Sequence record: MN850639.1
Origin: Escherichia phage radambza
Reading direction: 5' to 3' (one strand)
Length of the DNA: 64,000 nucleotides
Position 1 is the stretch's first letter; each line of letters opens with the position of its first letter. The notes under the pieces were generated by a model that worked only from the letters and a program-made list of their open reading frames with translations, ran no database searches and was not told the origin of the DNA. Positions 10,713 to 55,776 of the stretch are shown here, piece by piece. Position numbers and translations under genes: made by a program.

Positions 10713-10925
10713 ATGGCTCTTAAAAAGTTACATCCCAGAAGCGGTTATGGTAAGATAATTGATGATACAGATGGCTTTACAGTCTTTACAGTTATCTGTC
10801 AAGATGATTCACAGATTGAAAAGGCTCTTGATGATTATCTTAACGATGAACGTGAAAAGGTTAGGGCTACGAACATAGATTCATTGATTGACACTTCACG
10901 CAAACGGAAGAAGAAAGATGAATGA
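10713..10925 (+). CDS. hypothetical protein (70 aa)
   Basis: ORF track; tightly coupled to the upstream gene. Confidence 0.45.
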   Translation: MALKKLHPRSGYGKIIDDTDGFTVFTVICQDDSQIEKALDDYLNDEREKVRATNIDSLIDTSRKRKKKDE

Positions 10926-11217
10926 GGTTTTTGACCCTTATGCCCCACAAGATGATTGGGAGGCTGATAGAGAGGCTGAAATGGAGAGTTATATTTGTCC
11001 AATGGATGTAGACGAAATGAGAGACTTCGTTGCACATCGTTTTAAGAGAGAGATTAAATCAAGAGGTCTTTCTCAAGAGCAAGTTGCTAAAATTTGTGGT
11101 ATCTCTCAGGCTCGTGTATCCAACATAATCCATCTCACTGGTAACGTCTCCCTTGAGTATATGTTGGAAGTATGTGAAAAATTTGGTGTTAATTTCAATT
11201 TAAGGTTGGCAGACTAA
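10918..11217 (+). CDS. putative helix-turn-helix DNA-binding protein
   Basis: LSQEQVAKICGISQARVSNII resembles an XRE-type HTH; start moved to ATG 10918. Confidence 0.5.
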   Translation: MNEVFDPYAPQDDWEADREAEMESYICPMDVDEMRDFVAHRFKREIKSRGLSQEQVAKICGISQARVSNIIHLTGNVSLEYMLEVCEKFGVNFNLRLAD

Positions 11218-12107: not shown

Positions 12108-12368
12108 ATGAAAATTGAACACTGCTATGAGTCTGATGGAACACCTATACGTTGTCCACATTGTGGGTGTACAGACTTACAAGGTGAAGTTCATGTGATT
12201 GTTAATGGTCATATAGCTGAAGAAAGTACTACATGTGTTGGTTGTGGTGAGCATCTATCATTCTGGGCCTATGGTTCATACCAACCTGCACCACACTTAA
12301 TCTACCATAGCAATAAAGCTGTGAAGAATATTATCAACTGGTTCATTAAGAAAGGGTTTACAAAATGA
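12108..12368 (+). CDS. zinc-finger protein (86 aa)
   Basis: CPHCGC ... CVGCGEH cysteine clusters. Confidence 0.5.
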   Translation: MKIEHCYESDGTPIRCPHCGCTDLQGEVHVIVNGHIAEESTTCVGCGEHLSFWAYGSYQPAPHLIYHSNKAVKNIINWFIKKGFTK

Positions 12369-12910
12369 TTAAATTAATCTTTGCAAGTGGTGAAAATGGG
12401 GAGTTTGGTACTCCAACTGGTATGCCGTGGCCTCGACATAAACAGGACATGCAAGAGTTTAAGAGACTCACTAAAAATAACTTAGTAGTGATGGGTAATG
12501 AGACTTTCAAGACTCTGGGGTGTAAGCCTTTACCAGAACGTGCAAACCTCGTCTTAACAAATTCTGTACCATACTTAGGCATAGACTTTGGCAAAGATGA
12601 TGTAATGTATGCTAAAGCCAGTAAAGAGTCATTTGGAGCATTTTTGAACTATCTTGATAGCTCTATTGATGAAGATGTCTTTGTAATTGGTGGTGCAGGT
12701 GTCCTTGTCAATGCTTTACCATATGCTGGTGTAGTTTTCCATACAGTTTTCCATAAAGTTACTGAAGAGGCTACTGTGCATTTACCTTTTGAAAACTTCT
12801 TCGAGAAGCTGTATGATAACCGTGTATTTACAAAGGTACAGTCAAAACCATCAGAGGATGGTAAAACAACCTTTGAAATTTATGTTCCACAAGTAAAAGG
12901 ACACTTTTGA
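12365..12910 (+). CDS. dihydrofolate reductase
   Basis: MIKLIFASGENGEFG..GMPW...VMGNETFKTLG..PLPERANLVLT matches the DHFR fold motifs. Confidence 0.8.
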   Translation: MIKLIFASGENGEFGTPTGMPWPRHKQDMQEFKRLTKNNLVVMGNETFKTLGCKPLPERANLVLTNSVPYLGIDFGKDDVMYAKASKESFGAFLNYLDSSIDEDVFVIGGAGVLVNALPYAGVVFHTVFHKVTEEATVHLPFENFFEKLYDNRVFTKVQSKPSEDGKTTFEIYVPQVKGHF

Positions 12911-12911
12911 T

Positions 12912-13811
12912 ATGTCACAAGCAGATACAAGTTACAAAAATATCCTGAACCATGTTTTATCCGTTGGTGAACTACGTACTACACGAACTGGAGATGTTAT
13001 CTCTGCATTTGCTCCACCACAATTTCGTTTTGATATGCGTACTGGTTTTCCACTCTTAACATCTAAACAGGTGTTTACACGGCAAGTTATTGGGGAAGCT
13101 CTATGGTTCCTGAATGGTGAGAATAAGCTTGGTGAACTTCGTTACCGTACTTGGGGTGAAAATGACGGAGAACGCTGGACTATCTGGTCAGATGATTTTA
13201 AACGCTGGTTAAGCTCTAATTATTCTTCTGAACAAGATTGGTTAGATGATGCAGGTGGAAGGATTTATGGGGTTCAGTGGAGAAACTTTGAAGGTCATAA
13301 TGGTTGTGTTGTAGACCAACTAGAGACCTTAGTAACGAAGATGAAGGGTGATATCACAGACCGTTACATGCTTGTTAATGCTTGGAATGCAGCAGATATT
13401 GCAGCAAACTCAATGGCTTTAGCACCTTGTCATGTTCTGTTTCAGATTTATATCACTAACGAGGGTGAAGTTGACTTACAATGGTATCAGCGTTCAGTAG
13501 ACACCTTTTTAGGACTTCCGTTTAATATTGCTTCTTATGGTTTTATTCTGGAAGTTCTTTGTAAGATGACTGGATACACTCCACGGTACTTGATAGGTGT
13601 CTTTGGAGATACTCAGATTTATCAGAACCACATGAAACAGGTTTATGAACTACTGAACAACGAAGAGTTCCATGCACCAACTTTTGAGATTGGTATACCA
13701 CTTAACACTTTAAGTGACTTAAAACATCTTACAGCAAGTGATTTTATTGGTGGCATTAACAACTACCAACATGCAGGTAAGATTGAAGCACCTCTGTCAG
13801 TAGGCAAGTAA
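12912..13811 (+). CDS. thyA: thymidylate synthase
   Basis: Active-site context ALAPCHVLFQIY (ThyA catalytic Cys), 299 aa; directly follows DHFR. Confidence 0.85.
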   Translation: MSQADTSYKNILNHVLSVGELRTTRTGDVISAFAPPQFRFDMRTGFPLLTSKQVFTRQVIGEALWFLNGENKLGELRYRTWGENDGERWTIWSDDFKRWLSSNYSSEQDWLDDAGGRIYGVQWRNFEGHNGCVVDQLETLVTKMKGDITDRYMLVNAWNAADIAANSMALAPCHVLFQIYITNEGEVDLQWYQRSVDTFLGLPFNIASYGFILEVLCKMTGYTPRYLIGVFGDTQIYQNHMKQVYELLNNEEFHAPTFEIGIPLNTLSDLKHLTASDFIGGINNYQHAGKIEAPLSVGK

Positions 13812-13816
13812 AACAA

Positions 13817-13845
13817 AAAAGGCTCCTTTTTTACGGGAGCCTTAA
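13817..13845. terminator. bidirectional rho-independent terminator
   Basis: AAAAAAGGCTCC-TTTTTTAC-GGGAGCCTT between convergent thymidylate synthase (+) and the tail-module operon (-). Confidence 0.6.
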
Positions 13846-13848
13846 ATT

Positions 13849-14220
13849 TTATTTTTCAGTATTCTTTGTGTTCTTTTCAGTAATAGCTTGCAAGGCTGAT
13901 ACTGATTGAGCCAGATTGTTCACACTGTCAGAGAATTTATCCAGAGTTTTAGTAAGTTTTGCGTTCTCACCCTTAACATTCTCTAACTGAACTTTCTGGT
14001 TCTCCATCCCTAGCTGAATCAGTCTCATGTCAGACTGTAAATCACGAATAGCTGAGTAATTAGATTTGCTATAATTATCTAGCTGCTGTAACTTTGTTGT
14101 GACAGACACTTCTTGCTTACCATCCGAAACTTGCATGGTGGTATACATCCCAATAACACTAAAAATACCAACTACAATTGCACCAATATTATTTTTAAAA
14201 GCTTCCTCTAGCCACTTCAT
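13849..14220 (-). CDS. hypothetical membrane-anchored coiled-coil protein
   Basis: N-terminal TM AIVVGIFSVIGMY then heptad-rich region; last gene of the tail operon. Confidence 0.45.
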   Translation of the reverse strand: MKWLEEAFKNNIGAIVVGIFSVIGMYTTMQVSDGKQEVSVTTKLQQLDNYSKSNYSAIRDLQSDMRLIQLGMENQKVQLENVKGENAKLTKTLDKFSDSVNNLAQSVSALQAITEKNTKNTEK

Positions 14221-33735: not shown

Positions 33736-34235
33736 TAATTAAACCTTACTTTTTGTTTAAGGACTGTTGAATGGTTACCAGATTCATCTACCACATTTAC
33801 AATCATATCATATACTTTGCCTTTGACAAGTACTTTGTAATCATTTTGTGAAAAAATGTATTCAAGTCTGTTTGTTTCTTTATTAACTGTCATTGGAGAT
33901 TGAAATGCAGTGTCGAGGGTAATGAAAGCGGCTTCAATGCTATTAACATTGATACGTTTATTCTCGCAGTTATATAACTTTACACCCAAAAGGCATGAAC
34001 TGTCAAATGGAATTTTAACAATTTCACTACAATTTCCTGAAATAAACGGTTTTCCACTCATTGGAGCATCAAGTAACCTGCAAATAGTGAAAACGTCAGA
34101 GGTTCCACCATCACTTACATAACCTGAAAGGCTGACCCTTGAGCCAGCCTCTACAGATAATTTGTCAGTGATAATAAGAACACCTCTATACGAATGCACC
34201 CGTGTAGCATTTGAAATAGAGATAACTTCAGCCAT
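33735..34235 (-). CDS. hypothetical head protein (166 aa)
   Basis: ORF track, directly downstream of portal. Confidence 0.4.
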   Translation of the reverse strand: MAEVISISNATRVHSYRGVLIITDKLSVEAGSRVSLSGYVSDGGTSDVFTICRLLDAPMSGKPFISGNCSEIVKIPFDSSCLLGVKLYNCENKRINVNSIEAAFITLDTAFQSPMTVNKETNRLEYIFSQNDYKVLVKGKVYDMIVNVVDESGNHSTVLKQKVRFN

Positions 34236-35710
34236 TATTTATTTGCCTTATTTGCTGTGCTTGGGTCTTTCGCTGAAGGTGTCTTTGCAGTACCTTCTCC
34301 AGCGGTCTTATAACCATCTCCTGAACGGCTTTGGCTATTTGGAGAAAGCTTTTCAGATACTGGCTGAGACTCATCAGCAGGAGGAAGACCAATATGCTCT
34401 CTAAGTTTGTTAGATAGCTCTTTGTCAACTTCCAAAGCACCTACTGCAACAGTCTTCTGAATATAAGAACCAATTGCTTCAAGGTCTGGAGTTTCGATAT
34501 CATCATATGTGATTTGTACATGCTCTTCATCATCCCACATATTAAGAGCATAAGTCTGTGCAACTAAATCACGGTTAATTACGTTCTTAATTTGCTTCAG
34601 CAGAATATCTACTGACATTGCTAATAAGCTTGTCTTAGAATCTGCAAGAGAGAATGAACCATATTTTGACTGACCCATAGCAAGAACATCTGACATAAAT
34701 GCCATCATAATCTGCTTAGAATATCTGTCAATGATAGAACCTGTGTCATACGCTTTAGCACCCTGTCTAGAAACTAATGAGAACTCAAAGATATCCTCTT
34801 TAGTTTCTGGGTCGATATATCTAGGCCAGATTAAACCTGCTCTATCATTAGCAATCATATCATTAACAACAGTTTTGCAGTATTGTACGAAAGCTTTCTT
34901 TTCAGGTTCTGCATTTTCATCCAGATAATCTGGTGGTAAACCAATTTTTGGCATACCTACCAAGTCTCTTGAAACACCAACAGCTTCATACTCTTCAATC
35001 TGTACTTTATATTTCCACGGTACATAAGCATTAAGTAATGGTGAACGACCTTCTGGGTTTCCATATTCATCGTCATACTTAAACAGCATGAATTTAGCTC
35101 GTGGAAGTTTTCTTGTCAGTGGTCTTTCTCCGAGATTAATTGCTCCAGCAATATGTGAAACATTTCTCAGATTCTGTCTAACACCAGTAACTTTTCTAAA
35201 GTCTTCGTCAAAGTACCACTTATCAAGCGTTGACTGATTTCTGATTGGTAATTTAGCCCATCCAATTAGACCATCATCAAATTTTGACTGGTACTTTCCT
35301 TTCTTACCCTGACGTTTCTTATAAACCTTTTCATTAACACAGAACCCATAAGTGCAGAATGACATTACAGAGTTAATAAAATCTGCCCAATCATGCTCCA
35401 TGTCATCCATTAAAGAATTAAAGAAGTCTGCTCTTTCAAGCATTTTAGGGTCTTGCTCTTTTCCCTTTGGAGGTACAAATCTCCAGTTGACTTTTCTGAC
35501 AAACATCTTAATAATATTTACAGATGCTGCTACAGCAGGGTCACGCATCATTAATTGGAAAGTTTTAATACTTTCAGGGAACCTTAGTGCCTGACGAGGT
35601 TCTTCATAGATTCTTCCATTCTTAACCTTCAGACCCAAAGAACCTACTTCACCCATTCTAAATGGTGGTAAGCTTTCTTGTGTTTCTGTAATATCTGCCA
35701 TTCTTCTCAC
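34235..35710 (-). CDS. portal protein
   Basis: 491 aa immediately downstream of the large terminase; acidic/Ser-rich C-terminal tail. Confidence 0.75.
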   Translation of the reverse strand: MRRMADITETQESLPPFRMGEVGSLGLKVKNGRIYEEPRQALRFPESIKTFQLMMRDPAVAASVNIIKMFVRKVNWRFVPPKGKEQDPKMLERADFFNSLMDDMEHDWADFINSVMSFCTYGFCVNEKVYKKRQGKKGKYQSKFDDGLIGWAKLPIRNQSTLDKWYFDEDFRKVTGVRQNLRNVSHIAGAINLGERPLTRKLPRAKFMLFKYDDEYGNPEGRSPLLNAYVPWKYKVQIEEYEAVGVSRDLVGMPKIGLPPDYLDENAEPEKKAFVQYCKTVVNDMIANDRAGLIWPRYIDPETKEDIFEFSLVSRQGAKAYDTGSIIDRYSKQIMMAFMSDVLAMGQSKYGSFSLADSKTSLLAMSVDILLKQIKNVINRDLVAQTYALNMWDDEEHVQITYDDIETPDLEAIGSYIQKTVAVGALEVDKELSNKLREHIGLPPADESQPVSEKLSPNSQSRSGDGYKTAGEGTAKTPSAKDPSTANKANK

Positions 35711-35717
35711 CTAGCTA

Positions 35718-37334
35718 TCAACGTCTAAGCCCCTCATATGGGTTTCCTCTCACTAAATCTGTGTGAGCACCCATTGATGGTGGCTTGAATAATTTAACTT
35801 CGTTAAGACTGTTGAAAGCATCACTGGTAGCATCCACTTGGTCATCTTTAGTTTTACCGTCACCACAAAAGCCTTCAAGTTCTTGAAAGTAAGCTTCATT
35901 CCAACTACCTCTCAAGACTTTTACAAGTCCAGCTTCAGAAGCAGCAGAAAATCCCGCAAAGCGGGTAACTTTATCTTTATTTGTTGGTTTGGCTCTTGCT
36001 CGATAACCTTTCTCGGCAAGTTTCCTGATGAGGGATGTTGCGTAGGATTTACCAGCAGCGCCTGGGTCTTGAGGGATAAAAATACCAGTTCGCTTACCGT
36101 CACTTTCAGCAGTCAAATTAATTTGTGTTTCGACTCCAGAGGGTCTATCTCTAAATCTTACTACATCAATGATATAATAGCAACCGTCTTTTTTAGATTT
36201 ACCCATCTTAACACCTGCTGTCCAGTCTGGATTAGGGTTAACCTCAGATGGTAAAGTTGCTGCTAAGTCCCATGCTCTAACATCAAATACATCTTCTGGG
36301 AGTGAATCAACAATCTCACACCATTGTCTTTGCCAATAGTTTGAACCTTCTGCACGAGCTTTCCAGTTACCGAAACGAAGCCTTGCAACGTTTACAGGGG
36401 TGTTGTTTTCCAACTTACCACGGTACTTAGGCTCTAAGAAGTCAAGGATTGGGTTATCATCAATCGTACCAGAGATGAAGGTGTATGTTTGAGGAATCTC
36501 AAGAGGGAACATTTCAAGAATCTTGTCTCTCTCCCAATCAGAAACCATCACACCATCATTCATTACATACCAACGAATACGACCACACTTTTCAGGGTCT
36601 GGATAACCTTCTTCATCTAAGAATGGCTCTACCCAATCATAAATAAAATGGTCTCTGTCTGGGTTCATGGAAATTTTCATGTATGAATCACCTTCAGCAC
36701 CAGAACGAAGACGTGTTTGTAGGTATGAAATCTGTGAAGCAGAGAAGTGTGTACCTTCGTCAAAGTAAATAGCTGAGTATTCAATACCCTGATGACCTTC
36801 AGCGTGCTTTTCAAGTTCTAGATAGGTAAACTTGATAGTCGCCCCAGAAGGGAATGTGATAGTCATCTTCTGCTCGTGAGGAACCCCACCAAACTTACCA
36901 AATAGTTTCTTTGCAGCAGGCCATAAACCACCTTGTAACTGTGTTGTATTTCGACGGAAATATACAGCATTATAGTTAGGGTCTTCAATAAACCTTAAAG
37001 AGTCCATTAACAATGCAGCAGTTTTACCAGCACCAGCAGCACCACCATAGAGAACCAAGTCAGCATTAGTATTTAAAAAGACCTCTTGAGAACCCGGCTG
37101 AGGGGCTACATAATTCTTATCAGTCATCAATTTAAAGATAAGGCGAACTTGGTCTGGTGTGTATCTTAATAAAGTCAGAATTTGAGTTGGAAGGAATTTA
37201 GAGGGGTCTTTACCGAATGATTTAATAATTTCTTTTACTTCATCAGAAAGCCCCAACTCTCCAGCTAGGACTTTCCTAACATCTTCCACTCGCTTCTGCT
37301 TAACAGCATTTAAGTCCATTAAGCGCCTCCGCAA
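35718..37334 (-). CDS. terminase large subunit
   Basis: Walker A VLYGGAAGAGKT, later acidic nuclease-type motifs; 538 aa. Confidence 0.85.
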   Translation of the reverse strand: MRRRLMDLNAVKQKRVEDVRKVLAGELGLSDEVKEIIKSFGKDPSKFLPTQILTLLRYTPDQVRLIFKLMTDKNYVAPQPGSQEVFLNTNADLVLYGGAAGAGKTAALLMDSLRFIEDPNYNAVYFRRNTTQLQGGLWPAAKKLFGKFGGVPHEQKMTITFPSGATIKFTYLELEKHAEGHQGIEYSAIYFDEGTHFSASQISYLQTRLRSGAEGDSYMKISMNPDRDHFIYDWVEPFLDEEGYPDPEKCGRIRWYVMNDGVMVSDWERDKILEMFPLEIPQTYTFISGTIDDNPILDFLEPKYRGKLENNTPVNVARLRFGNWKARAEGSNYWQRQWCEIVDSLPEDVFDVRAWDLAATLPSEVNPNPDWTAGVKMGKSKKDGCYYIIDVVRFRDRPSGVETQINLTAESDGKRTGIFIPQDPGAAGKSYATSLIRKLAEKGYRARAKPTNKDKVTRFAGFSAASEAGLVKVLRGSWNEAYFQELEGFCGDGKTKDDQVDATSDAFNSLNEVKLFKPPSMGAHTDLVRGNPYEGLRR

Positions 37335-37340
37335 ATAGAA

Positions 37341-37541
37341 TTATTCAGAGTCTGTAGCAGTCTCTTCTTTCTTAACTTCGAACTTTGCATCAACGGCATC
37401 AAGAAGTGCATCCATAGATGCTTCTTTAATATCAATACCTGTTGCTACAGACAGTCTGTCTGCAATTGCCATGATAGTATTCTGCATAAATTCTAGCTTT
37501 TTGTTAGCTTCATAAAGTTCTTTATAAACGGTCTCACTCAT
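37341..37541 (-). CDS. hypothetical protein (66 aa)
   Basis: Small acidic ORF upstream of terminase; too small to call as small terminase. Confidence 0.4.
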   Translation of the reverse strand: MSETVYKELYEANKKLEFMQNTIMAIADRLSVATGIDIKEASMDALLDAVDAKFEVKKEETATDSE

Positions 37542-52217: not shown

Positions 52218-52671
52218 AGAAGTCGTTCAAAAAGCCATGCTTAACAATTCAACTAAACATGAAATGTACATAGAGATTTGTGATAAGCTGAATTGTTCAA
52301 GACATGCTGCTAAGGTTCTTGTAAGTTGCTTTATCTGGGAATGCTCAGAAGCTTATATGCAATATGTAGCGTTTGAAAGTTCTCACTTACTAGGTGATGT
52401 AGAAGCTGGTGAGAAGCTAAAAGAACCTGAAGTGAAAACAGTCCCTAAAGTTGGTAATGTATACCGTCTTAAAGACTTCAAGACTGGAAAGATTGTTGCA
52501 AAAGGTGTAGTAGAATCTGTCTATCATGATGGTAAATACCTACTTAAAATATTTGAGTATGACAGCCACTATACGCACTTATGTGGGATTACATTCTTAG
52601 TAACAGAAGAAGACCTTATTAAGAACAACAGCAACAAGTTTGCAGTACCAGCCTACCAAGTTTTACGATAA
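52207..52671 (+). CDS. hypothetical protein (154 aa)
   Basis: ORF track. Confidence 0.5.
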   Translation: MKIKEVVQKAMLNNSTKHEMYIEICDKLNCSRHAAKVLVSCFIWECSEAYMQYVAFESSHLLGDVEAGEKLKEPEVKTVPKVGNVYRLKDFKTGKIVAKGVVESVYHDGKYLLKIFEYDSHYTHLCGITFLVTEEDLIKNNSNKFAVPAYQVLR

Positions 52672-52684
52672 TGGTGTGATAGCT

Positions 52685-53233
52685 ATGGAAAAAGATAACT
52701 TAAAAGAAGTTGAAGGTAACTACTTAGTACTTGACTGGAAGGATGTTCGGGAAGCACTCTCCGAAGAAAATCTTGACTGGTTCGAACAAATTATCTTTGC
52801 AGTACGGCATAACCGAGAAGTTGAAAATGGTAAAGAGCCACTTGAAGGAATCTTTGTAGAAAGGTCTTATCCATTCTATGAAGACACTTTGCAGAAAGTT
52901 AAGATGTACTTTAAACAGAAGAACCGTAAAGTGGTCACTATGGTATCTCTTGGTGGACAGAGTATGTCTGTGATGGAAGATATCAACCCTAAGAGACCAA
53001 GTAAGGGTGTCTGTATAAAAATCACAGGTCATGAAGAGTACATCTCAGCAAGTGATTTTAGTGTGTTCTGTAATGGTTCTGCTGTCTTTAATGGGTTTCA
53101 CTATGATATCCGAGTGTACCCAATCAAGGGAGATGATATCATGATGCAGATATTCGATAACAATAATGGGTTCACTCATTTTTACCAGACAACTAAGTCA
53201 TCCTTGAAGACAGTTTTAGAAAGCCTGATTTAA
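52685..53233 (+). CDS. hypothetical protein (182 aa)
   Basis: Track start 52640 is TTG; first in-frame ATG at 52685. Confidence 0.45.
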   Translation: MEKDNLKEVEGNYLVLDWKDVREALSEENLDWFEQIIFAVRHNREVENGKEPLEGIFVERSYPFYEDTLQKVKMYFKQKNRKVVTMVSLGGQSMSVMEDINPKRPSKGVCIKITGHEEYISASDFSVFCNGSAVFNGFHYDIRVYPIKGDDIMMQIFDNNNGFTHFYQTTKSSLKTVLESLI

Positions 53234-53244
53234 AATATCTTAAG

Positions 53245-53276
53245 AGCCTCCTTAATTGGGGGCTTTTTAATTTTTA
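53245..53276 (+). terminator. rho-independent terminator ending the rightward operon
   Basis: AGCCTCC-TTAATT-GGGGGCT hairpin followed by TTTTTAATTTTT. Confidence 0.55.
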
Positions 53277-54659
53277 TAAAATTTTATCGGTTGTTCCAAC
53301 CTCTGGGTCACCATCACATGTGAATAAAATATCTACCCTTCTTAACAACCTTCTTAAGCTTACTCTCTATATATAGTTATATAGTACTATATAGTATCTT
53401 AGTATCTATCTAGTGGTCTTAATAGCCCCTCTGTATAAACCTTCTAAACACTCTTCTAACAAGCCTTCTTAACAACCTATACAATCACCTTAACCATCCC
53501 TCTACACCCTCTTAGAAGCTCCTATACACCTCTTAATCTCTATGTCAGCTATGTTACCCTCTATAGGTGTTCACTAGGTATTACTAAACCTCTATATAGA
53601 CTGTTTTAACAAACTTAACAGGAATATCTTTACAGACCTTATCTCACAAGGTCTAACACGGTACTAACAAGGTATCTTATAAGCCTGTTATTACCTGTAT
53701 TTTTAAAAGGCTGTATAGGTAATTATTCAGAATCTTAAAATTTTTATAAAATAGGACTATCAAGTCATTTTTTAGGGTCTTTGAAGGAACTGAAAAATAT
53801 CTGTAGAGGATGTATATCTGCTTGGTAGCCCTTAACAGCTCCCTTACAAGTACTTTGCAAAATTTTAAAATATCCTTAACAATCTCTTAACAGTTCTCAC
53901 ATCTTCTTAACAACTCTTCAAAGGTCTTAACAGTTTCTTAACAGAACTAACAAGGGCTTAACAGTTTTCTAGGGATTGGTAACAATACCAATTAACAAGT
54001 GCTGAATAGTCTTTACAGAGGCTTAACAGATGACTAACAAGAGCTAACAAGTTAATTTTAAAGAGTTATTTTGTTAAGATAATTAACAAGTTCCTAACAA
54101 GTGTTTAATCTTTTTAACAAGCTGTTAACATGGTCACTACTCTTTTCTTATCGTTCCCTTTCCTTTCTTAGTGATTCTTTAAACATACCTCTTAAAAGCT
54201 CTGTATAGCTCTGCATAACCCCTTTTAAGTCTCTTCCTAGTATCTACAGCCCAACTATACAGACACCTCTTTATAAGGCTTTACAGAAGCTTTAAAGGCT
54301 ATGTCAAAGACTCTTACAAGGCTTTTACGTGGTCTTAACAGAGATTTAACAAGGGGCTAACAAGTTGCTAACAAGTGCCTTAAAAGCATAACTATGTAGG
54401 ATTTGTTAAGAAATTGTTAAGAAAATGTTAAGGGGGCTAGCATTTACGTAACTTTTAAGCTACTTCAAAGTAACTTTTAAGCCCCTATAACATACTTTAA
54501 GACACTAACAAGCCCTTTTTAGTTATTCACAAGATAGCTAACGAGATGATAAAGCTTACACCCTTATAAGATTCTTTTAAGGCTCTGGGAAGCTCTAGGA
54601 AGGGCTTTTTAGAGTGGGTTAATATGATTGCTTAAGTTAGGTTGATAAGGCTGTTATAG

Positions 54660-54689
54660 AGCGTTTTAGAGCGTTTTAGAGCGTTTTAG
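54660..54689. repeat. tandem repeat (GAGCGTTTTA) x3
   Basis: Three exact adjacent 10-mers inside the heptamer-repeat region. Confidence 0.7.
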
Positions 54690-54853
54690 TGGTTGCCCTT
54701 CCCTTTCGGGTTATGGGCTTACATTTAAGGGAAAGATTAAGTTGATTTGATAAAAGGCTATAGAGTAGACTATAGAGTTATTGCTTTTTAAGGTCTGGTA
54801 AAGTTCTGACTTGTTAGGTGGGTTTTAAGATTCTGGAAAGGAATTTGATAGAC

Positions 54854-54879
54854 GTAAAAAAAGCCCCATTTAAGGGGCT
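54854..54879 (-). terminator. rho-independent terminator ending the leftward small-gene array
   Basis: On the minus strand AGCCCC-TTAAAT-GGGGCT followed by TTTTTTT. Confidence 0.55.
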
Positions 54880-54917
54880 GTAAAGGTATCTGGGGCTATT
54901 TAGCCCCGTTGCGGCGT

Positions 54918-55166
54918 TTAGTTAGTGCCTTCTTTGTCGTAGTACAGGGAGACAATTTTTTCACCCCAGTAGTGGTATGTATAACCCTCTTTGAGAGCTT
55001 CCTGTTTTGTTTCTTTCCAGAATTCATCAGAGGGGTTGTAGTCACTGATGGTCTGGCTGATAAGGCCTTTCACCATTTCAAAGGCGTTATCAGTACCTAC
55101 AAGGTCAAATTTAACGTCCAGAGAGTAGAAGCCAAATTCGTTAACAGTTGCGCGGATAGTAGCCAT
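54918..55166 (-). CDS. hypothetical protein (82 aa)
   Basis: Preceded by cassette A copy 1. Confidence 0.5.
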   Translation of the reverse strand: MATIRATVNEFGFYSLDVKFDLVGTDNAFEMVKGLISQTISDYNPSDEFWKETKQEALKEGYTYHYWGEKIVSLYYDKEGTN

Positions 55167-55271
55167 TTTTGAATCTCCAGTTTAGGAAGTTGATTAAGGG
55201 TTTTATTTAGTGGGGAAGGTCATTCCCTCCCCGTTGATTGACAATTTACAAACTTTTGATTGTCTCGTCAA
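55167..55271 (-). promoter_or_regulatory. cassette A copy 1: sigma70-like promoter + 5' hairpin + RBS
   Basis: Minus strand TTGACG-17 bp-TAAATT, then hairpin GGGGAGGG-AAUGA-CCUUCCCC, then GGAGAUUCAAAAAUG. Confidence 0.55.
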
Positions 55272-55776
55272 TATCTTTTTCAATATCTTTTAAAGTTTTT
55301 TCTAAGTTCTTGATATTGAAAGATAAGCCTTCCCCCAGTGTCTTAGAGTAACCGCTAGGACGTGAGTCATAGAGTTCGATTTCTTCCACTTCGAAGAGGC
55401 TAACCAACTCACCGCTTACACTGTAAGCCATTGAAACAGTATTTACAGGGGCTTTATAGAACTTGTTTAAAGACTTGATAGAACGCTCGTAAGCCATTTT
55501 ATAGCCATTTAAAAGGTCTTTAACGTGGTTACGAACGTTTTTACACTCATCTAAGTAAATCTCTAAGAATAACGGTAATAATTCTGCTACAGCTTGCATA
55601 AAGTGAGAGACTACAACGGTTGCAACATTACGACGATGGATATAATAAGCCCCGTTTTCTGATTTGGTGATGGTTGCAAAGTGTACACCGTTGCAGCGGA
55701 ATTCATAGGTATCTTTAACAGGCTTAGACATTACAGCATTTGAGCGAATGTAGTTGATAGCTCGAAATTTGTTCAT
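55246..55776 (-). CDS. hypothetical protein (176 aa)
   Basis: Track ORF reads through the cassette; trimmed to the ATG that directly follows the cassette RBS. Confidence 0.5.
   Translation of the reverse strand: MNKFRAINYIRSNAVMSKPVKDTYEFRCNGVHFATITKSENGAYYIHRRNVATVVVSHFMQAVAELLPLFLEIYLDECKNVRNHVKDLLNGYKMAYERSIKSLNKFYKAPVNTVSMAYSVSGELVSLFEVEEIELYDSRPSGYSKTLGEGLSFNIKNLEKTLKDIEKDIDETIKSL

Follow-up and report, generated by a model that had tools for sequence, protein, structure and literature searches.

A heptamer-rich, gene-free region of Escherichia phage radambza very probably holds the direct terminal repeat of a Felix O1-like myovirus

Introduction

What does a phage do with 1.7 kb of DNA that encodes no credible protein and is filled with copies of one short motif? 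The question is raised by positions 53234-54908 (1,675 bp; hereafter the region) of a 64,000-nt stretch of the genome of Escherichia phage radambza (MN850639.1), a stretch that we refer to in full as the window. An initial annotation, made from the letters of this DNA, had described the region as free of open reading frames (ORFs) and saturated with CTTAACA-type heptamers, and had named three candidate functions: an iteron-type replication origin, a packaging site or genome terminus, or an array of binding sites for a phage DNA-binding protein. The comparative analysis presented here indicates that the region is very probably the terminus, or concatemer junction, of a Felix O1-like myovirus, with positions 53824-54437 as its direct terminal repeat (DTR). 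The best explanation as a whole, which we moderately favor, combines this terminus with a role for the heptamers as a lattice recognized during packaging.

The region matches more than 250 phage records, nearly all of them from Felix O1-like myoviruses (Ounavirinae), at 84-91% identity over its full length; the match is 91.4% for warpig and 88.8% for Felix O1 itself (positions 12315-13927, opposite strand). The window also encodes 24 tRNA genes, a pair of genes for the large terminase (TerL) and portal, and a DNA polymerase, which fits a Felix O1-like identity. That phages of this group have such a terminus is already known, and what is new here is the anatomy of the array. The searchable papers give DTR lengths only, leaving undescribed the position between convergent operons, the boundary sequences and the heptamer arrays; no description of the array was found in the Felix O1 paper (Whichard 2010), in that on the BASEL collection, or in the Danish coliphage and HP1 papers.

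Results

Genome ends of related phages fall on two fixed positions

For records that begin or end inside the homologous region, we fetched both ends and compared start against end by BLAST. Exact DTRs, with copies 100% identical, were found in ECP2307 (592 bp), NBEco004 (628 bp) and Citrobacter phage HP1 (Mooglevirus; 570 bp), and the HP1 record annotates its terminal repeats as repeat_region. The first and last bases of these three repeats align exactly to window positions 53824 (GGTAGCCCTTAACA…) and 54437 (…TGTTAAGGGGGC). Hafnia phage SPARTY (Kolesnikvirus) has a DTR of 439 bp that starts right after TGTATATCTACTT and ends in …GTAAAAGTGGC, at homologous boundary nucleotides, and that of Erwinia phage M7 (444 bp, copies again 100% identical) has boundaries 2-3 nt wider on each side. 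In all, at least five GenBank records in three genera carry exact DTRs (439-628 bp) in the homologous region. Six vEam_* records stop at the same left-boundary position, and the records of Roscha1, Hena2 and Prophecy begin at the same right-boundary position. The ends are fixed and non-permuted, with records from different laboratories for Felixounavirus, Mooglevirus and Kolesnikvirus phages using the same aligned nucleotides, from which M7 is off by 2-3 nt. In an alignment of 14 genomes (radambza and 13 relatives) from three genera, which is also used below, the distance from boundary to boundary is 569-633 bp, and 614 bp in radambza.

Published work on individual phages gives similar results. 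The 439-bp DTR of SPARTY was obtained with PhageTerm on PacBio reads (PMC8928762), and DTRs of 613 bp and 581 bp have been reported for vB_EcoM-Ro111lw (PMC6454146) and Pr103Blw (PMC8303462), as have short DTRs for Fifi106 and Fifi318 (PMC11984208); according to its paper, HP1 has direct repeats at its two ends (PMC9120918). Pulsed-field gel electrophoresis sized the Felix O1 genome at ~86.5 kb vs the 86,155 bp of its sequence, which according to the authors suggests short terminal repeats (PMC3185647). TerL homology and PhageTerm moreover led one study to assert that Felix O1-like phages use short-DTR packaging (PMC11984208). The TerL of radambza (35718-37334, minus strand) matches phrog_979 and Pfam Terminase_6N/6C, families that do not discriminate between packaging types.

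Since the exact ends of relatives map to 53824 and 54437, we take the region to be, in all likelihood, the concatemer junction and 53824-54437 to be the DTR. Of the three functions considered in the initial annotation, the packaging site or genome terminus is the one strongly supported, both by the physical ends and DTRs of relatives mapping to this interval and by the PhageTerm reports. The virion DNA of this phage group is shown by homology to be linear and non-permuted, with a short direct terminal repeat. A headful pac site of the P1, P22 or SPP1 type was rejected: the repeats of the relatives are exact, their boundaries are identical, and the class assigned by PhageTerm is DTR.

Some deposited ends fall elsewhere. 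The records of dune, BPS17W1 and others were opened at arbitrary points inside the region. The terminal 127-bp "repeat_region" of Salmonella phage PC79-13 (OR687644.2) was considered as a terminus and discarded; it maps inside the DTR (53845-53971) and looks like an assembler k-mer overlap.

Both boundaries share an inverted sequence element

The predicted DTR is 614 bp long with 34% G+C and contains 20 YTAACA cores on the plus strand and five on the minus strand. The left cut (53823|53824) would read …TGTATATCTGCTT|GGTAGCCCTTAACA… and the right cut (54437|54438) …TGTTAAGGGGGC|TAGC…, and a GCCC(CC)TTAACA element is common to both boundaries, in inverted orientation relative to each other. The left boundary sequence GGTAGCCCTTAACAG (53824-53838, plus strand), where the ECP2307 and NBEco004 records start and that of HP1 ends, is nearly invariant among the 14 genomes. 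Just outside it, the alignment shows the conserved box TGTATATCTGCTT (53811-53823, plus strand), which in Erwinia and Hafnia phages reads TGTATATCTACTT; in the FIfi106 and SPARTY sequences this box directly precedes the first base of the SPARTY record. At the right boundary, 54437, the ECP2307 and NBEco004 records end and that of HP1 starts. Units of 22 bp (GTAACTTT…TTTTAC) lie beside the boundary in 1 to ~6 copies among relatives, with most in Si3.

The T7 "hairpin end" model would have a hairpin or cruciform form at the right boundary, which single-stranded DNA folding of 54320-54500 did not support (z=-1.2); a fold at the left boundary (53760-53900, z=+1.6) was unsupported as well.

The heptamers form a polar array in helical phase

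The saturation with more than 30 heptamers that had been noticed initially holds up: the region contains 34 YTAACA cores, 28 on the plus and six on the minus strand, with 25 in the DTR, seven in its left flank and two in its right flank. The full YTAACAR motif occurs 26 times on the plus strand vs 1.29±1.14 (maximum 7) in 1000 dinucleotide-preserving shuffles of the region. Motif density is 16.7 per kb vs 1.1 per kb in the rest of the window, a ~15-fold difference. Outside the region, the 66 YTAACAR sites are at chance level (69±8 in total in whole-window shuffles), and therefore the excess of the motif is confined to ~53.3-54.5 kb.

The spacing of the sites is as regular as the initial annotation, which gave it as 10-11 bp, had suggested. 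Among the 27 distances between neighbors on the plus strand, ten are exactly 11 bp, 13 fall within 9-11 bp and three are 20 bp, with most of the remainder being multiples, at 20-22 and 31-33 bp. With its ten 11-bp spacings, the array has the helically phased direct repeats, at least three in number, by which iterons are recognized. Tandem Repeats Finder (TRF) confirmed the 11-bp arrays and also recovered the tandem previously described as three copies, namely GAGCGTTTTA at 54653-54689, with a period of 10 and 3.7 copies.

The main forward array (53875-54131, plus strand) holds 15 plus-strand and two minus-strand YTAACA cores, mostly 9-11, 20 or 31 bp apart, and most of its sites are found in 12-13 of the 13 relatives. 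Further right, four forward heptamers (CTTAACAG, TTTAACAAG, CTAACAAG and CTAACAAG) follow one another at exactly 11 bp (54335-54375), a group that has 2-4 copies across relatives. The inverted group (54403-54437, minus strand) abuts the right boundary …TGTTAAGGGGGC and consists of three TGTTAAG copies with a period of 11 bp (54403-54432) that stop 5 bp short of the right cut; there are two such copies in warpig, three in radambza and five in Si3. Site orientation is thus polar, nearly all plus up to 54375 and inverted from 54403, with the switch at ~54390. When one mismatch is allowed, the counts are 14 plus and 9 minus in the left flank, 29 and 14 in the DTR, and 3 and 13 in the right flank. 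The GC skew switches along with motif polarity, from -0.5 to +0.36 around 54400.

The heptamers are conserved beyond their surroundings

In the DTR portion of the alignment, columns of the TAACA core are identical to the window at a frequency of 0.955 vs 0.802 for other columns. Sites are retained in a mean of 10.7 of 13 relatives vs 5.95 of 13 for background hexamers (Mann-Whitney p=1e-8). Indels are overwhelmingly of 10, 11, 22 or 23 bp, and therefore units are gained or lost whole, with the phase kept. The Erwinia phage FIfi106 is alignable only over the forward array (53853-53966, E=4e-12) and the right boundary, where 54404-54439 and FIfi106 2877-2912 are 80.6% identical. The layout is likewise kept in Kolesnikvirus phages: their TTAACA arrays run forward, the right boundary has an inverted pair, and a 439-bp DTR holds 17 sites. 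Taken together, there is clear comparative evidence that the heptamers are under selection.

These data bear on the simplest alternative, that the heptamers have no function and are micro-repeats generated by slippage, which the non-coding spacer where the cut sites happen to lie would tolerate. Copy number does change by whole units (TGTTAAG 2-5, CTAACAAG 2-4) and unit-length indels dominate, as slippage would predict. However, the cores are markedly more conserved than the spacers and the phase survives the indels. In addition, the motif, the polarity switch and the position relative to both boundaries are kept in four genera, even where the other DNA is unalignable. We consider this alternative very improbable.

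Similar arrays lie near terminase genes in uncultured viral contigs

We scanned viral contigs for TTAACA-N5-TTAACA-N5-TTAACA, which returned Felix-like termini and, in addition, ~39 loci whose TerL genes belong to one family. At 13 of the latter, from uncultured contigs of the Bacteroidota type, a TTAACA (or TGTTAA) triplet in 11-bp phase starts 5-8 bp after the TerL stop codon (L026:2134-2161, L046:3278-3305, L054:2888-2915, L080:5034-5061, L109:13933-13960, L137:5256-5283 and 7 more loci). This suggests a link of TTAACA arrays to the terminase. A broader notion, in which the YTAACAR lattice is the recognition code of a packaging-initiation protein across Ounavirinae and the same grammar recurs beside the terminase genes of Bacteroidota-type phages, strikes us as improbable.

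Several features of these contigs are worth recording. The TerL-adjacent triplets are followed by a conserved TTGTATATTAGC-like box, and the TerL proteins encoded beside them share ~53% identity with their Flavobacterium phage counterparts. In contigs of the L117 type, a sister lineage, the distance from TerL to the arrays downstream of it is 0.1-2.5 kb. Downstream of TerL in L080 (5100-5730) is a non-coding segment of ~0.6 kb that is richer in G+C than its surroundings, has TTAACA triplets on both sides and a terminator-like hairpin at its end, and gave no match in an Rfam scan. A 169-kb contig (L075:7330-7530) carries three TTAACA, two TGTTAA, GAGGGGGCTAGC, three TGTTAA and then GGGCTGCC, a layout that closely recalls the Felix-type right boundary TGTTAAGGGGGC|TAGC; downstream of this array is a gene that resembles those for sigma factors and has a good promoter of the sigma-70 type. 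Two further contigs (L086:1720-1800 and L122:300-370) have 4-6 TTAACAG units at 11-bp spacing, free of ORFs and beside or interrupted by a perfect DnaA box (TTATCCACA). The TerL proteins of these two contigs are distantly related to that of the window (E ~1e-20).

An origin of replication within the terminal repeat is unlikely

Phased repeats of this kind could also constitute an iteron-type origin in, or coinciding with, the terminal repeat, with an initiator that would attach to the repeats and melt AT-rich DNA next to them. This proposal draws on the many phased direct repeats themselves, on a TATAG-rich AT stretch in the left flank (53366-53412), on the local GC skew flip from -0.5 to +0.36 around 54400, and on two consensus-fitting DnaA boxes (TTATTCACA; 53319, minus strand, and 54523, plus strand) at ~12-fold the window density. 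The arrays that abut a perfect TTATCCACA box in ORF-free DNA of L086 and L122 count in its favor as well, as does T7, which has secondary origins near both ends and the promoters phiOL and phiOR annotated there.

However, the array occupies precisely the DNA from one terminase cut site to the other. Among the adjacent genes there is none for an initiator, a helicase loader or a Rep-like protein, an incomplete exclusion given that the neighbors are all of unknown function. The DnaA-like boxes are not conserved, as about half of the relatives have lost the one or the other and the Erwinia phage has neither. The skew flip can be explained by motif composition and polarity. A search of the region for the IHF consensus found none. 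An origin is unlikely on this evidence, although it is a serious rival and is compatible with the terminus that we propose, the two not being mutually exclusive.

The region lies between convergent operons and encodes no conserved protein

The absence of genes that had been noted initially is borne out: the longest ORF in the region is one of 35 aa, and in the homologous region of the 13 relatives the longest ORFs (34-60 aa) have inconsistent positions and strands. Well-curated records annotate no coding sequence there. Indels among relatives measure 1, 9-11 or 21-23 bp, which is not codon-like, and given this pattern and the lack of a conserved ORF we rejected a hidden gene.

The flanking ORFs are convergent and, as also described at the outset, inward-facing terminators bound the region. 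The rightward operon, whose last gene is 52640-53233, ends in a 10-pair hairpin followed by a T-run (53242-53267, plus strand). The leftward operon, with its last gene at 54918-55166, ends at a second intrinsic terminator found from the terminator scan and ORF map (54862-54879, minus strand). The conclusion that this is no promoter hub agrees with our scan, in which promoter-like hits were no more frequent than in shuffles (10 vs 7.7±2.8), and the promoter hub was rejected. A structured RNA was rejected as well, as an Rfam scan of 52500-55500 returned a single sub-threshold hit, located on a terminator. This hit, Phe_leader at 53212-53272 (25 bits vs a gathering score of 55), covers the plus-strand terminator hairpin and is almost certainly spurious.

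Between the terminators and the DTR lie two non-coding flanks. The left one (53268-53823) is highly conserved, with a mean identity of 0.886 to the 13 relatives, and has a GC skew down to -0.5; its seven plus-strand YTAACA sites from the motif scan are at 53342, 53456, 53469, 53606, 53615, 53653 and 53664, and it includes a CTTCTAACA-type array in 12-bp phase (53427-53484). The right one (54438-54861) has a G-rich skew of up to +0.36 and contains a second repeat family, with two copies of GTAACTTTTAAGC (54447-54482), TTTAGAG-type units that include the 3.7 copies of GAGCGTTTTA (54653-54689), and two copies of CTATAGAG (54758-54777). This second family (TTTAGAG, GAGCGTTTTA) is restricted to the DNA just beyond the right DTR boundary. 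At the corresponding place FIfi106 (L015:3048-3330) has 11 TTAGAA units in one orientation, in pairs 10-12 bp apart.

A separate property of the window is its total avoidance of GATC, the Dam/MboI/Sau3AI site, which occurs 0 times in the 64 kb vs 184±13 expected from dinucleotide shuffles.

Discussion

Our analysis leads to a rough proposal for how the array might work. In T7-type DTR phages, concatemers contain one repeat per junction, the terminase makes specific cuts, and the second copy of the repeat is synthesized (PMC10438801). By analogy, the virion DNA of radambza would have positions 53824-54437 at each of its two ends, and a concatemer would have them once per junction. The YTAACAR heptamers would then act in cis as a helically phased lattice for a packaging or terminus-recognition protein, perhaps the small terminase or an equivalent. 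This lattice would comprise the 25 heptamers in the repeat and the seven just to its left, mostly 11 bp (one helical turn) apart, and would include the polarity flip, which comes ~35 bp ahead of the right cut. A protein bound to one face of the helix could bend the DNA and position the TerL nuclease (35718-37334, minus strand) at both boundaries, with their shared inverted GCCC(CC)TTAACA elements, and the second repeat family (TTTAGAG / TTAGAAG) may mark the DNA just outside the right boundary. Argued as it is from comparison with other phages, the step from terminus to mechanism is tentative: whether the heptamers serve packaging and terminus recognition, rather than another function associated with the ends, is at best an evenly balanced matter.

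A binding-site array for a phage protein, the third candidate of the initial annotation, is compatible with the terminus and probably describes the role of the heptamers. The binder that the initial annotation suggested, a helix-turn-helix (HTH) protein at ~10.9-11.2 kb, is a genuine HTH_3 protein of the Cro/C1 type (10888-11217). In the Erwinia phages that share the TTAACA array, tblastn detected no homologue of it, by which it is weakly disfavored. The same search found no homologue of a 66-aa ORF next to TerL in Erwinia phages sharing the motif, and we set both aside as candidates. This ORF (37341-37541, minus strand) immediately precedes TerL, a place in which one might expect a small terminase. 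In the same part of the window, a cluster of 24 tRNA genes (37767-43054, minus strand) has TerL and the portal gene (34235-35710, minus strand) just downstream. Pfam showed no domain in the three ORFs neighboring the region that were tested.

The array might instead bind some other phage or host protein at the genome ends, with roles such as protection from exonucleases, pausing or steering of ejection, synapsis of the repeats in recombination or concatemer formation, or silencing. Its location in the DTR means that it is complete at each virion end, its sites are conserved and helically phased, the terminators on both sides close the region to transcription, and the Cro/C1-type protein offers a conceivable binder. 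Yet no candidate varies together with the array: neither the HTH protein nor the 66-aa ORF was detected in motif-bearing Erwinia phages, and the idea has no experimental precedent in this phage group. We judge it doubtful.

Several points weigh against a DTR terminus with a packaging lattice, the account that we favor. The DTR of radambza is assigned by homology to the ends of relatives, and the window has the repeat only once, as it should if the assembly is collapsed or the window internal. No small terminase could be recognized in the genome and no binding protein was identified; no family is annotated for the 66-aa ORF that lies upstream of TerL, and the eight ORFs nearest to the region match only PHROGs of unknown function. 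The TerL-adjacent loci represent one or two related lineages and were selected by the scan pattern itself, and such arrays are absent from the cultured relatives FpV9 and P12024L. The L086 and L122 arrays, placed beside a DnaA box, look like pointers toward an origin function. Finally, the function of the T7 heptamer arrays was reportedly itself left unresolved by Dunn and Studier in 1983, and therefore the analogy with T7 supports the statement that such arrays are typical of DTR junctions more than it supports any mechanism.

The terminus accounts for a 1.7-kb "empty" region that has been left blank, or given spurious ORFs of 30 aa, in more than 250 deposited Felix O1-like genomes. Its DTR boundaries, TGTATATCTRCTT|… and …TGTTAAGGGGGC|TA, are exact to the nucleotide and recognizable in sequence, so that read-level analysis is not needed to orient and complete the genomes of this phage group, which is in therapeutic use. 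The array also provides a tractable second example, besides T7, of short repeats built into a terminal repeat, and a test bed for what such arrays do. If the shared TTAACA grammar were true, it would amount to a widespread packaging signal, one from which the ends of DTR phage genomes could be predicted with nothing but the sequence.

Among known systems, iteron origins such as the lambda ori and plasmid oriV resemble the region in their helically phased direct repeats beside AT-rich non-coding DNA. They differ from it in that here no initiator gene adjoins, the DnaA boxes are not conserved and the array matches the interval that the cut sites delimit. Terminase sites composed of short repeats include P1 pac, with 4+3 hexamers (TGATCA/G) around the cut, the pacL and pacR boxes of SPP1, and the R sites of lambda cosB. 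All of these have several short repeats near the cut, some in helical phase and in groups on either side, and the four forward and three inverted heptamers that precede the right cut here recall such groups. In radambza, however, the cut lies beside and not between the repeat groups, and the array is larger, with 34 sites over ~1.1 kb. P1 and SPP1 package by the headful mechanism and have permuted ends, in contrast to the exact ends of radambza relatives.

The T7 junction is a closer parallel, with a short exact DTR, fixed ends, no ORFs, and a 7-bp motif repeated ~20 times inside and beside the repeat; PhageTerm also places radambza relatives among the T7-like DTR phages. In the T7 sequence, which we checked, CCTAARG occurs 12 times in the first 350 bp and eight times in the last 320 bp, both ORF-free; these arrays were reportedly named SRL and SRR by Dunn and Studier in 1983. 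The differences are substantial. The T7 motif is CCTAAAG, spaced ~13 bp apart and in a single orientation, whereas here it is YTAACAR, spaced 11 bp apart, with polarity inverting before the right boundary. Most T7 copies lie outside a repeat of 160 bp, whereas here most are inside a repeat four times longer. T7 has strong early promoters at its ends, whereas the operons next to the radambza junction run toward it and have their terminators there. Radambza moreover belongs to another phage family and has another type of TerL, being a myovirus with Terminase_6N/6C. The two arrays may work alike and are not homologous.

The DTRs of other Felix O1-like phages (439-628 bp), by comparison, are the same element: they consist of homologous DNA, have …TGTATATCTRCTT| as left and …GGC|TA as right boundary, and occupy the same non-coding setting between convergent operons. 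The 614 bp of radambza fall within the 569-633 bp predicted for Felixounavirus, Suspvirus and Mooglevirus. What the region reveals is accordingly no new kind of system, and is instead the radambza version of the termini already known from its relatives.

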